Source: a virus (Duplodnaviria > Heunggongvirae > Uroviricota > Caudoviricetes). Taken from it: a DNA stretch of 9,520 bases. Positions within the stretch are counted from its first letter, which is position 1, and every line of letters begins with the position of its first letter. Positions 2,685 through 4,254 of this stretch are shown one piece after another. Below the pieces are notes generated by a model. That model was given only the letters and a program-made list of their open reading frames with translations. It was not told where the DNA came from and did not search any database. The DNA lies in IMG/VR virus record IMGVR_UViG_2711768020_000003, one strand, 5' to 3'. Both the position numbers and the translations under genes were made by a program.

Positions 2685-2809
2685 GTCGTATGCACGCGCA
2701 CATCTGAATTATGGTGGGGCGCATGGGGGAGCTGAAAAGCTCGCCGGTCGGTTTCCCGGTAGTTCCAACCCTGTGCGTCTCACCACCCGATGATTGGAAC
2801 CTGACGGTG

Positions 2810-2838
2810 TTGACAGTTTCAGGTTTGCAGTTTACATT
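2810..2838 (+). promoter_or_regulatory. Second candidate sigma70 promoter upstream of the ORF6N gene
   Basis: -35 TTGACA (2810-2815), 17-nt spacer, -10 TACATT (2833-2838). A weak hairpin plus a run of 7 T (about 2885-2911) follows. Confidence 0.35.
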
Positions 2839-3044
2839 TCCCCGCGGTGCTCAAAACACCTCGAAAGCGGTATCCACACCCGATAGCCATGTGGTTTTTT
2901 TGTGTCCAGAATTCTTGGTTTATGACCGGGTGTGCGGCTAATACAATACCAGCAATGGAAATACGCCCGCCGACTTTCGACGGTTTTGAGCGCCCGGTCA
3001 CCCTCTCAAAAGGGGTAAATCAAAATATTCGAAAGGACATGTCT

Positions 3045-3608
3045 ATGAATCGCACGTCTATTGAAAAACTCCCGTCACTTACGCATAACCATCTTCCTGT
3101 CATGACAACAGAGCTGCTGGCTGATTTGTACGGAACAGAGCGCCAGCGTTTGACAAACAATTTCAATCGAAACAAAGAACGGTTTATAGAAGGTAAACAT
3201 TTTTTCCTGATAGAAGGTGATGCGTTACGAGAGTTGAAGAACGAAAACTCTTTAAGAGTTTCTGTGAAAATTGCCCGTAACGTTCGCTCCCTCATCCTCT
3301 GGACAGAACGTGGCGCAGCCCGTCACGCCAAAATGCTCGAAACCGATCAGGCGTGGGAAGTGTTCGAAAAACTGGAAGACTGTTATTTCAACCAGAAACA
3401 GCCACCAGCGGCACAAAACACATCTATCGAAAATGATGGATGCGCATTACTGAGCCACTTCGATAAACACGGTCAGGTTGAGTTCACGGAAAAGGTACCC
3501 GCCGATGCGATGGTATGTACTCTGGAACGGTTTAAATTTTATCTGGAGCAACACGGGTGGATCGTTGCCCGTAAAGAGCAACTGGTGGAGCGGTTGATGC
3601 GGTTTTAA
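3045..3608 (+). CDS. ORF6N-domain (KilA-N/Bro-N-like) putative DNA-binding protein, antirepressor-like, with uncharacterised C-terminal domain
   Basis: N-terminal region TTELLADLYGTERQRLTNNFNRNKERFIEGKHFFLIEGDALRELK...ARNVRSLILWTERGAARHAKMLETDQAWEVF matches the ORF6N pattern as I recall it. Start preferred at ATG 3045 (AAAGGA about 7 nt upstream); ATG 3039 is the alternative. The long upstream extension in the ORF track (from 2847) is rejected. An intrinsic terminator follows the stop. Confidence 0.75.
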   Translation: MNRTSIEKLPSLTHNHLPVMTTELLADLYGTERQRLTNNFNRNKERFIEGKHFFLIEGDALRELKNENSLRVSVKIARNVRSLILWTERGAARHAKMLETDQAWEVFEKLEDCYFNQKQPPAAQNTSIENDGCALLSHFDKHGQVEFTEKVPADAMVCTLERFKFYLEQHGWIVARKEQLVERLMRF

Positions 3609-3683
3609 AAATTTTTTCCGAAAACTTTACGATCGTAAAAAGTTGAATATCCTGTTAAGAGTGGTTACTACGCCACACAGCTT

Positions 3684-3709
3684 AAACCCGCCGATGAGCG
3701 GGTTTTTTT
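3684..3709 (+). terminator. Rho-independent terminator after the ORF6N gene
   Basis: AAACCCGC (3684-3691), loop CGATGA, GCGGGTTT (3698-3705), then a T run through 3709. Confidence 0.6.
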
Positions 3710-3759
3710 ATACCTGAAAAACGGCACAGGACGTTAAACGTGCTGGTGGTCAGATGAGT

Positions 3760-3788
3760 TTGCAGATGTGATGACATATGGTTATTAT
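3760..3788 (+). promoter_or_regulatory. Candidate sigma70 promoter for the tRNA array
   Basis: -35 TTGCAG (3760-3765), 17-nt spacer, -10 TATTAT (3783-3788); first tRNA starts at 3798. Confidence 0.5.
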
Positions 3789-3797
3789 TCTGCCTCC

Positions 3798-3874
3798 GGC
3801 CCTTTAGCTCAGTTGGTCAGAGCGAGCGACTCATAATCGCCAGGTCGCTGGTTCAAGTCCAGCAAGGGCCACCA
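3798..3874 (+). tRNA. tRNA-Ile (anticodon CAU, lysidine-type, ileX/ileZ-like, decodes AUA)
   Basis: Manual cloverleaf: 7-bp acceptor stem GGCCCTT/AAGGGCC, anticodon loop CTCATAA, T-arm GGTTCAAGTCC, encoded CCA. Anticodon arm and T-arm resemble E. coli tRNA-Ile2 from memory, not elongator tRNA-Met. Confidence 0.8.
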
Positions 3875-3875
3875 A

Positions 3876-3952
3876 CCACCACTAGCTCATCCGGATAGAG
3901 CATCAACCTTCTAAGTTGACGGTGCGAGGTTCGAGTCCTCGGTGGTGGGCCA
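3876..3952 (+). tRNA. tRNA-Arg (anticodon UCU, decodes AGA/AGG)
   Basis: Manual fold: acceptor CCACCAC/GTGGTGG, D-stem GCTC/GAGC, anticodon stem TCAAC/GTTGA with loop CTTCTAA, T-stem CGAGG/CCTCG with loop TTCGAGT, discriminator G, encoded CCA. Confidence 0.82.
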
Positions 3953-3954
3953 GC

Positions 3955-4030
3955 GCCGACTTAGCTCAGCAGGCAGAGCAACTGACTTGTAATCAGTAGG
4001 TCACCAGTTCGATTCCGGTAGTCGGCACCA
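3955..4030 (+). tRNA. tRNA-Thr (anticodon UGU), thrU-like
   Basis: Manual fold: acceptor GCCGACT/AGTCGGC, anticodon stem ACTGA/TCAGT with loop CTTGTAA, T-loop TTCGATT, encoded CCA. Near-identical to host tRNA-Thr(UGU) as I recall it, with about 2 D-loop differences. Confidence 0.82.
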
Positions 4031-4033
4031 TAT

Positions 4034-4108
4034 GCGGGCATCGTATAATGGCTATTACCTCAGCCTTCCAAGCTGATGATGCGGGTTCGATTCCCGCTGC
4101 CCGCTCCA
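4034..4108 (+). tRNA. tRNA-Gly (anticodon UCC), glyT-like
   Basis: Sequence GCGGGCATCGTATAATGGCTATTACCTCAGCCTTCCAAGCTGATGATGCGGGTTCGATTCCCGCTGCCCGCTCCA folds as a canonical tRNA with anticodon loop CTTCCAA, and matches enterobacterial glyT from memory. Confidence 0.82.
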
Positions 4109-4254
4109 GCGAGATTTGAGACGAAGGTTGTTATTTGCACTGACACAATATTGTGTGGGAATGTCTGACTCCTTACCATCTCCTGTTCTGTGATGTTGTT
4201 TTGTTGCAGTTCCAGTGCTCTTTTTTCAGCACCAGAATGATGAATCATCAGTCC

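Follow-up and report, generated by a model that had tools for sequence, protein, structure and literature searches.

The stretch between the late antiterminator gene Q and the lysis genes in the IMG/VR virus record IMGVR_UViG_2711768020_000003 (Caudoviricetes) raises the question of whether it carries accessory cargo or a control element of the phage itself. The 9,520 nucleotides analysed here (hereafter, the window) are part of a lambdoid prophage, as indicated by gene order and Pfam matches. An earlier note, made from the sequence alone, had interpreted positions 2685–4254 as a cargo (moron) locus in which an ORF6N-domain protein gene and an array of tRNA genes would be expressed from the repressed prophage. 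The features it listed, namely, the ORF6N gene, the promoter- and terminator-like sites and the four tRNA genes (3798–4108), are all found where it placed them. The stretch is nevertheless better interpreted otherwise: it probably consists of a self-contained antirepressor cassette of the P1 immI/Gifsy-1 isrK-anrP type, inserted between Q and its late promoter and followed by a tRNA cassette of the type present in Shiga toxin (Stx) phages. The unit begins at about position 2563, upstream of the start at 2685 given in the note, and the end at 4254 is merely the edge of a run of Ns.

A predicted antirepressor gene

The product of the ORF6N gene, here denoted ant, matches the anti-repressor family PHROG 2379 (E 4e-85, the best of the matching anti-repressor families) and is 49% identical over 184 amino acids (aa) to STM2616/AnrP of Gifsy-1 (E 6e-58). 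An index of the assembly collection lists the exact 187-aa Ant protein in 3,937 blocks. A profile search of genome contigs with Ant retrieved only distant ORF6N relatives, from Firmicutes and Xenorhabdus, and a sequence search of the PDB produced no match. The ATG at 3045 is the best start, in agreement with the gene calls in relatives and with the spacing from the Shine-Dalgarno (SD) sequence. A 253-aa open reading frame (ORF) starting from GTG 2847 was rejected as the gene, as it overlaps the second leader and the Xcc1-class RNA described below and as both the relatives' calls and the SD favour ATG 3045.

The lysogenic-conversion or anti-defence role suggested previously is not borne out. 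In PADLOC, Ant matched only candidate PDC-S05 models, with E-values of 1e-7 to 2e-3, over residues 19–115 (the N-terminal domain), and no full-length defence match was found. The other ORFs of at least 40 aa in 2685–4254, tested on both strands with hidden Markov models as the note had proposed, matched nothing in PHROGs or PADLOC; Pfam, against which only the two plus-strand ORFs that precede ant were also run, likewise gave no match. We treated these ORFs as non-coding, overlapping RNA genes, or antisense to ant. By sequence similarity, the ORF6N gene is a predicted antirepressor of a characterised type of regulatory locus (Gifsy-1 antQ-isrK-orf45-anrP, P1 immI c4/ant), and nothing suggests toxin, defence or anti-defence cargo.

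Two RNA modules upstream of ant

Two modules in tandem precede ant, the first of them truncated. The features of Q and the cassette are as follows:

2157–2564, plus strand: late antiterminator Q, DLP12/H-19B type (PF06530, E 2.7e-52)
2569–2598, plus strand: promoter PisrK, TTGACC-18-TATATT (consensus scan), the left end of the cassette
2592–2644, plus strand: c4-a1b1 (Rfam RF03163, 50.1 bits against 46.7)
2605–2681, plus strand: small RNA (sRNA) IsrK (Rfam RF01394, 77.5 bits against a gathering score of 50; model 1–77, full-length)
2707–2790, plus strand: C4-type antisense RNA, homologue of STnc1160/orf45 (Rfam RF01695, 71 bits against 45)
2794–2800, plus strand: remnant b2 target of module 1, UUGGAAC (sequence comparison)
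2810–2838, plus strand: second promoter, P2, TTGACA-17-TACATT (consensus scan)
2846–2901, plus strand: IsrK-like leader 2 (read directly from the sequence)
2924–3007, plus strand: sRNA-Xcc1-class RNA (Rfam RF02221, 77.4 bits against 53; model 1–87)
3005–3011, plus strand: site a2, CUCAAAA, complementary to a'
3029–3035, plus strand: site b2, UCGAAAG, complementary to b' and overlapping the ant SD
3033–3037, plus strand: ant SD, AAGGA, with AGG 11 nucleotides (nt) before ATG 3045, the modal spacing of the family
3045–3608, plus strand: ant, antirepressor with an ORF6N domain, 187 aa (PF10543, E 9e-21)

The four Rfam families occur in the same order as in related loci (isrK, c4-a1b1, C4, sRNA-Xcc1), all above the gathering score. 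Matches to promoter consensus sequences in themselves were no more frequent than expected by chance (8 found against 7.0 expected from shuffled sequences), so those listed here and below count only because of the conservation or homology found afterwards. In the case of PisrK, the -35 element, the 18-nt spacing and the -10 element are all retained next to three different left contexts, namely, Q in the window, ninE in phage Nil2 and the 82-type Q in Gifsy-1. The IsrK RNA displays the features of its class: it has a promoter and an intrinsic terminator of its own, and its gene is placed between Q and an antirepressor gene. It bears the C4 target sites a1 and b1 together with its terminator (2660–2681). 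What the earlier note had called a Q-proximal terminator (the hairpin at 2660–2681, or 2660–2676 in the scan) is the terminator of this RNA, which matches the Rfam model at 77.5 bits. The element GUUCCAA of the C4-type RNA, for which a fold of -44.9 kcal/mol is predicted, is complementary to UUGGAAC of IsrK, and the isrK and C4 DNA is 83.5% identical to that of Gifsy-1.

Module 1 ends immediately after b2 and runs into module 2. The homology to Gifsy-1 and Nil2 spans 2563/2582–2797 (PisrK, isrK and C4) and then ceases, and the homology to the antB type of Nil2 and P13374 begins at 2846. Between the b2 site at 2794–2800 and P2, there is no a2 site, SD or first ant gene, although downstream a2/b2 sites covering the ribosome-binding site (RBS) are a feature of the C4 class and are present in Gifsy-1, VL40, Nil2 and P13374. 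In Nil2 and P13374, an ant-class gene occupies this place (antA in Nil2), so that two complete units stand in series, isrK-C4-antA followed by promoter-Xcc1-antB. The antA gene has been lost both in the window and in Escherichia coli EC12, which is 88.6% identical over 2100–3750. Because of this loss, and because module 1 runs into module 2, the overlap between orf45 and anrP is absent here: the frame from ATG 2711/2723 stops at 2941, ant begins at 3045, and the second leader lies in between. The layout with the truncated tandem was detected in complete E. coli genomes by its left junction in 53 of 5,426 and by its right junction in 37 of 5,426; none of the complete E. coli genomes in RefSeq covers at least 80% of 2565–4254.

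The second module repeats the arrangement with different RNAs. Across eight diverged loci, TTGACA-like and TAnnnT hexamers with varying spacers occur 7–9 nt upstream of a leader starting with GGTGCT, and 2810–2838 is accordingly a predicted, positionally conserved sigma-70 promoter. Leader 2 resembles IsrK, with a small hairpin that presents a1 (CUCAAAAC, 2850–2857), b1 (UCGAAAG, 2861–2867), and a terminator hairpin at 2875–2894 followed by a U-run at 2895–2901. The Xcc1-class RNA contains b' (CUUUCGA, 2974–2980) and a' (GUUUUGAG, 2983–2990), which are complementary both to the leader sites (a1, b1) and to the sites ahead of ant (a2, b2). A duplex of -36.6 kcal/mol is predicted for leader 2 and the Xcc1-class RNA, and we read the latter as a C4-like antisense RNA.

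Covariation of the predicted antisense loops with ribosome-binding sites

The conserved core motif of the Xcc1-class RNA was used to gather loci from IMG/VR, which yielded 72 non-identical viral loci bearing the RNA. For each locus, we asked whether the SD of the following gene included an N5-AG(G) heptamer to which hairpin 2 was exactly complementary, with loci of other specificity serving as the control. Exact complementarity was detected in 33 of the 72 loci and involved 23 different heptamers, compared with 0.9% of the pairs in the control. In 28 of these 33 loci, the SD-site heptamer recurs upstream, and the AGG of the complementary loci lies 11–13 nt ahead of the start codon. A hairpin followed by a T-run precedes the RNA in 49 of the 72 loci. 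The covariation of a' is weaker (22 of 72, against 6.9% in controls) because few variants of a' exist. Two other designs were abandoned: a first test based on duplex energy was noisy due to long flanks and gave way to the exact-complement tests with cross-locus controls, and an N5-AGG octamer, which only 2 of 72 loci satisfied, demanded too much, given that most loops reach no further into the SD than its AG; N5-AG followed by G was used instead.

The downstream genes belong to antirepressor classes in 60 of 65 cases (KilA-N, 14; Bro-N, 14; P22_AR_N, 10; Rha, 10; AntA, 8; ORF6N, 4). The same three-way covariation is apparent in six loci of the isrK/C4 family (GUUCCAA/UUGGAAC, ACGCCAA/UUGGCGT, GUAGCAA/UUGCUAC), and the C4 loop has its complement next to the SD in Gifsy-1, VL40 and P13374. 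A comparison closer to the window is provided by EC12: b' is CUUUCGA in the window and CUACUGA in EC12, and b1 and b2 switch in step (UCGAAAG and UCAGUAG, respectively). With all three elements switched at a divergence of about 11%, selection on the pairing is indicated.

These patterns suggest a function for the sRNA-Xcc1 family: both C4 and Xcc1-class RNAs would mask an RBS, and the short terminated leaders would compete for them. In the literature that we searched, no paper assigns an antisense, SD-masking role to sRNA-Xcc1. One paper reports sRNA-Xcc1 upstream of an ORF6N gene in APSE phages (whitefly), and another reports it upstream of symE in Xanthomonas integron cassettes.

One locus, L077, carries at about 3100–3175 four extra tandem copies of the Xcc1-core motif CTAATACAA inside the RNA, an expansion of the otherwise invariant AAUACAAUACC element.

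Comparison with known control systems

The closest counterpart of this locus is that of the Salmonella prophage Gifsy-1, in the order Q, isrK, C4, anrP, isrJ, tRNA-Arg, gogA and holin. Both loci contain Q, PisrK, IsrK with its terminator, a C4-type RNA (STnc1160/orf45), a 187-aa ORF6N antirepressor, a short segment with a promoter and terminator, tRNA and lysis genes. The earlier note had stated that its cargo reading would be undermined if the block were a fixed part of a characterised phage with a known function, and the series Q, isrK, anrP, tRNA and lysis genes of Gifsy-1 largely amounts to that. The isrK promoter of Gifsy-1 drives anrP, with 280 units from a transcriptional fusion against 4 from a translational one (Hershko-Shalev et al. 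2016, PMC4825925); IsrK supplied in trans switches on the translation of anrP, and AnrP raises the level of antQ-operon RNA and induces the Gifsy-1 prophage (PMC4825925). IsrK, STnc1160 and IsrJ are highly expressed in Gifsy-1 lysogens without lytic transcription (PMC7067206). Thus, of the proposition that autonomous promoters would allow expression from the prophage, the promoters stand, but in Gifsy-1 anrP is transcribed (280) and yet untranslated (4). The two loci also differ. The Q of Gifsy-1 is of the 82 type and that of the window of the DLP12/H-19B type; the window has a first module without an ant gene and an sRNA-Xcc1-class second leader before ant; there is no AUGA overlap between orf45 and ant; a homologue of the Stx-phage-type PR' takes the place of isrJ, of which no match was found in the window; and there are four tRNA genes rather than one.

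The immI region of phages P1 and P7 consists of P51, a1 b1, c4, a2 b2, icd and ant. Its likeness to the window extends to a structured antisense RNA encoded in cis, with two recognition elements and complementary sites both upstream and downstream, the downstream site covering an RBS ahead of the antirepressor, and to variable recognition elements that set specificity, as in the heteroimmunity of P1 and P7. In contrast to P1, the context here is lambdoid, there is no icd-like gene and the target is the SD of ant itself, the leader is an IsrK-type terminated, decoy-like RNA, there are two tandem modules, and Ant has an ORF6N domain. The immunity system of satellite phage P4 (CI RNA, seqA/seqB/seqC) has been named as a structural homologue of IsrK/STnc1160 (PMC4825925). 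In P4, a processed leader RNA pairs with complementary stretches upstream and downstream within the same transcript, and the same would hold here, but the P4 CI RNA ends transcription of the replication genes early, whereas the target here overlaps an SD and the gene is that of an antirepressor.

The sRNA-Xcc1 of Xanthomonas belongs to the same covariance-model family and likewise lies just upstream of a potentially harmful gene (symE there; ORF6N in APSE). The RNA from Xanthomonas integron cassettes (Chen et al. 2011) is reportedly a trans-acting, virulence-linked sRNA, its target not known, whereas the comparative data presented here point to cis-linked antisense control of the SD of the adjacent gene.

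Probable position of the late promoter

Downstream of ant, the window contains a segment that resembles the late promoter region of Stx phages, followed by the tRNA genes:

3626–3712, plus strand: displaced remnant of the 3' end of Q with a PR'-like late promoter at 3626–3653, TTTACG-16-TATCCT (homology to phage 06-3462)
3684–3712, plus strand: hairpin (3684–3705) with U-run following the PR'-like promoter
3759–3788, plus strand: tRNA promoter pT, TTTGCA-18-TATTAT (consensus scan; aligns with the annotated pT of Stx2 phages)
3798–4108, plus strand: four tRNA genes, anticodons CAU, UCU, UGU and UCC (ARAGORN; Rfam 56–70 bits)
4109–4254, strand not applicable: non-coding spacer, its end formed by one arm of a long imperfect palindrome; then an N-run

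The Q protein of the window (128 aa in the form that starts at 2178; a distant match to the Q21 structures 6jnx and 6p18) is 76% identical to the Q of Stx2c phage 06-3462 up to MDRYVER, after which it ends with IM and a stop codon; the 06-3462 protein has 19 more residues. At 84% identity, the segment at 3626–3714 aligns with pR' and the first hairpin as annotated in 06-3462, where that stretch overlaps the stop codon of Q, so that Q runs straight into pR'. Because the segment after ant corresponds to the end of Q and pR' of 06-3462, and Q of the window ends early, the cassette (about 2563–3608) sits between Q and PR', which are contiguous in 06-3462 and about 1.05 kb apart here. The claim of the earlier note that the ORF6N block is not standard backbone is confirmed by this insertion. 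Its attribution to the ORF6N gene of a promoter and terminator of its own holds for the conserved promoters; the terminator at 3684–3705, in contrast, belongs to the PR' segment, and none is present in the cassette after ant.

The segment after ant is conserved among the window, EC12 and the Stx2c phage and differs in loci with other Q types. In Gifsy-1, where Q is of the 82 type and 59% identical to the Q of CobraSix, the segment after anrP, isrJ included, is homologous to the 3' end of Q and the downstream region of CobraSix and Klebsiella phages. In E. coli VL40, where Q is of the DUF1133 type and 88% identical to the Q of vB_EcoS-666R9, the segment after ant is 80% identical to the end of Q and the downstream region of the latter phage. 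PisrK is unchanged beside all three Q types and beside ninE of Nil2. As is established for lambda, 21 and 82, each Q protein is confined in its action to its own promoter region, so PR' is better sought in the segment that varies with Q, and PisrK is better taken as the promoter of the cassette. For Stx phages, the 258-nt StxS RNA that Sy et al. (PMC7547250) mapped is consistent with the pR' annotation.

The cassettes also occur away from Q: isrK-C4-ant cassettes lie in the nin region of Nil2 (L003 3019–4951) and, in Stx2a phages, at other sites (about 3.6–5.5 kb, on the minus strand, at the opposite end of the genome record). By these comparisons, the cassette is mobile among lambdoid phages and not bound to Q.

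Gifsy-1 isrJ (L034 4328–4434) is located on a segment whose counterpart in Enterobacter phage CobraSix and Klebsiella phages takes in the 3' end of the 82-type Q gene and the sequence immediately following, and IsrJ is probably the short transcript of the Gifsy-1 late promoter, similar to lambda 6S or StxS RNA.

The tRNA array

The four tRNAs are of the Ile2 type (CAU), Arg (UCU), Thr (UGU) and Gly (UCC); in the 98%-identical VL40 locus, the CAU tRNA is labelled tRNA-Ile by PGAP. Positions 3753–4033 are 77% identical to pT-ileZ-argN-argO of Stx2 phages, and the first tRNA is nearly identical to ileZ. The autonomous promoter proposed for the array has an experimental precedent: in the Stx2 prophage of strain Sakai, a primary start of tRNA transcription lies between tR' and stx2 (Sy et al., PMC7547250). 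Attachment-site remnants were considered and rejected, as all four tRNAs are complete, high-scoring and homologous to a known phage cassette. There is no second terminator between the hairpin at 3684–3705 and pT, so the tRNAs may also receive transcription from PR'.

In the late region of Stx phages (933W type; 06-3462), the order is Q, PR', tR', pT, ileZ-argN-argO, stx and the lysis genes. The Q family, the PR' segment (84%), and pT with the tRNAs (77%) are homologous in the window and in the same order. Here, unlike in Stx phages, the antirepressor cassette separates Q from PR', stx is absent, there is no 258-nt StxS-type region with a second terminator, and the tRNAs are Ile2-Arg(UCU)-Thr-Gly rather than Ile-Arg-Arg. 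The Stx genes do follow the homologous tRNA cluster in related phages, and the slot is mosaic, with a methyltransferase gene in EC12, gogA in Gifsy-1 and stx in Stx phages; on both points, the earlier note was correct.

The codons read by the four tRNAs, AUA, AGA, ACA and GGA, are of low usage in enterobacteria. In the visible phage genes, they amount to 6.3, 4.8, 15.5 and 11.4 per 1000, respectively, and the holin and endolysin genes together contain 6 AUA and 4 AGA in 236 codons. The counts, which come from a small sample, fit supplementation for lysis and late genes.

The clearly homologous second tRNAs of these arrays differ in the identity assigned to them: Arg-UCU by ARAGORN in the window (3876–3952), argN (tRNA-Arg) by annotation in Stx2 phages and tRNA-Lys by annotation in phage PhiR47_1 (comparison loci L032 2038–2114 and L033 3095–3171). 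This suggests anticodon switching within one tRNA lineage.

Proposed mechanism and alternative explanations

From the family memberships, homologies, boundaries and complementarities described above, we infer RNA-RNA pairing in vivo, a direction of regulation, a target of Ant and a site of action for Q at 3626–3653, as follows. PisrK would produce the short, terminated IsrK RNA, and transcripts that read through would carry the C4-type antisense RNA; P2 would similarly produce the second, IsrK-like terminated leader, with read-through yielding the Xcc1-class RNA. The antisense RNA would hold ant untranslated in the lysogen, and the short leader RNA would compete for the antisense RNA and thereby free the translation of ant. 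Ant would then inactivate a prophage repressor, raising early and Q transcription, and early transcription passing through Q would re-enter the cassette, creating positive feedback. The PR' homologue at 3626–3653 would start the late operon, and the tRNA cassette, transcribed from pT, would supply decoders of AUA, AGA, ACA and GGA and could be expressed in the lysogen.

Several observations weigh against this scheme. The -10 element of the PR'-like promoter, TATCCT, is weaker than the TATCAT of Stx phages and failed the consensus scan. The hairpin homologous to the one that follows it lies inside the 258-nt StxS RNA in Stx phages and may terminate poorly. Module 1 is truncated and has not kept the Gifsy-1 coupling of orf45 and ant through the AUGA overlap. 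Insertion sequence (IS) elements surround the prophage in relatives, so that the prophage may be defective and its repressor perhaps absent. The codon enrichment comes from few genes and is judged against general host values. Finally, Sy et al. (PMC7547250) place IsrK under a promoter regulated by antitermination, which favours PisrK as the late promoter.

This last point leads to an alternative arrangement, in which Q would act at PisrK as its late promoter, the IsrK terminator would correspond to tR', ant and the tRNAs would head the late operon, and 3626–3714 would be an inactive relic. PisrK does lie directly after Q, gives a short terminated RNA with read-through, as do the promoters of lambda 6S and StxS, and is nearer to the consensus than the promoter at 3626, and IsrK has been described in this way (PMC7547250). 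We nevertheless consider the arrangement unlikely, as the same PisrK-isrK accompanies Q genes of three unrelated families and, in Nil2, occurs in the nin region, well away from Q. It is the segment after ant that changes with the Q type in all three cases, that is conserved among the window, EC12 and the Stx2c phage, and that would suit Q proteins, each specific for its own promoter region. Decay of the cassette to a relic in a defective prophage, either no longer under selection or left with no repressor to act on, would account for the truncation of module 1 after b2 and for the IS elements that flank or interrupt the prophage in relatives, one of which, L028, is a remnant with IS on both sides. 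This explanation is improbable, given that the exact 187-aa protein occurs in 3,937 assembly blocks, that all three b sites and the a sites are intact here, that b', b1 and b2 have switched together in EC12 at about 11% divergence, and that the truncated-tandem layout persists in 37–53 of 5,426 complete E. coli genomes.

Least compatible with the data is the reading of the ORF6N gene as an autonomous moron, with its protein made in the repressed prophage and conferring a lysogenic-conversion, defence or anti-defence trait. The block is indeed inserted, with its own promoters, relative to related backbones; the slot holds stx, gogA or a methyltransferase gene in relatives; PDC-S05 is matched weakly in PADLOC (E 1e-7, in the N-terminal domain only); and the GC content is slightly lower, at about 45–46%. 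However, among characterised homologues the closest, an antirepressor, induces its own prophage and, in uninduced cells with Gifsy-1, is transcribed but not translated. Two antisense-RNA leaders precede the gene, one of them predicted to mask its SD, and no other ORF of at least 40 aa matches PHROGs or PADLOC, with the two upstream plus-strand ORFs matching nothing in Pfam. We therefore regard such a role as very improbable and retain the antirepressor cassette as the preferred interpretation.

A broader generalisation is about as likely as not. Under it, sRNA-Xcc1 would be a second widespread class of C4/CI-like cis antisense "immunity" RNAs, with a hypervariable loop that fits the SD of the next antirepressor-class gene (KilA-N, Bro-N, Rha, AntA, P22_AR_N, ORF6N), possibly also of SymE, and a decoy site in a short terminated leader. 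The cassettes would repeatedly settle between Q and the late promoter, where they would be able to couple early transcription to antirepressor release, and Gifsy-1 IsrJ would be the short PR' transcript.

Surroundings of the locus and runs of Ns

The neighbouring genes and sequence gaps in the window are as follows:

31–1563: DnaB-like helicase
between the helicase and RusA: small ORF
1817–2188: RusA
3' of the stretch studied: pinholin S21-like and signal-anchor-release (SAR)-endolysin-like lysis genes, partly under N-runs
3' of the lysis genes and 5' of the HNH gene: Rz
5381–5731: HNH endonuclease gene, directly 5' of the P27-family small terminase, large terminase and portal genes
4255–4489 and 4749–5161: N-runs

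The order of the HNH, small terminase, large terminase and portal genes is the ordinary HK97-type packaging layout, and the immunity region lies outside the window. The N-runs do not preserve length. In relatives that are 99.9% identical over window 1–4253, which belong to IS-rich chromosomes, the first run, 237 window positions (4253–4490), corresponds to 650 bp, and the second, 414 window positions, to 625 bp. Because the runs stand for longer real sequence, window coordinates beyond 4254 are compressed and the lysis genes are unreadable from the window. The first run hides about 0.54 kb of additional non-coding DNA ahead of the holin; given the 650 bp of the relatives, the distance from the last tRNA to the holin is in reality about 0.68 kb, not 0.27 kb. 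The sequence of the relatives contains no convincing gene under this run, and a megablast search against phages with the hidden pre-holin region (L024 7062–7760, which contains a 98-aa ORF) returned nothing. A strong hairpin resembling an intrinsic terminator, with a 10-bp stem and a T-run (L024 7678–7704), lies about 40 bp upstream of the holin start, and lysogen transcription from PR' or pT would end there unless antiterminated.

The last bases before the first N-run (window 4233–4254; L024 7183–7262) represent the flipped orientation of an imperfect palindrome of about 75 nt, predicted at -40 kcal/mol, which has the opposite orientation in all nine relatives examined. A small inversion between the arms might account for the flip, as might a variant or an effect of assembly.

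At the other end, the first 56 bases of the window are the end of an IS3-family transposase gene, as judged by offset from L025 (L025 1784–3012). In L028, the region has IS copies on both sides (1685–2841 and 9524–10680) and non-phage genes after it. In at least some hosts, the prophage is probably defective.

Implications

The type of induction-control cassette and the type of tRNA cassette were known already; new are the tandem, half-truncated layout, the recurring insertion between Q and PR', and the comparative evidence for Xcc1-class RNAs as C4-like antisense gates. A very common prophage region would accordingly be labelled an induction-control switch, not virulence or defence cargo. With the Q-dependent late promoter placed downstream of the antirepressor cassette, the set of genes that count as late changes. 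The sRNA-Xcc1 family gains a testable role, the antisense masking of an adjacent RBS with interchangeable specificity loops, and such masking, if true, would explain why APSE phages have this RNA ahead of ORF6N genes and Xanthomonas integrons have it ahead of symE. The variable loops may decide which prophages cross-induce in polylysogens, for example, in Shiga toxin-producing E. coli (STEC) and, if the loci are from Shigella, as is presumed, in Shigella.

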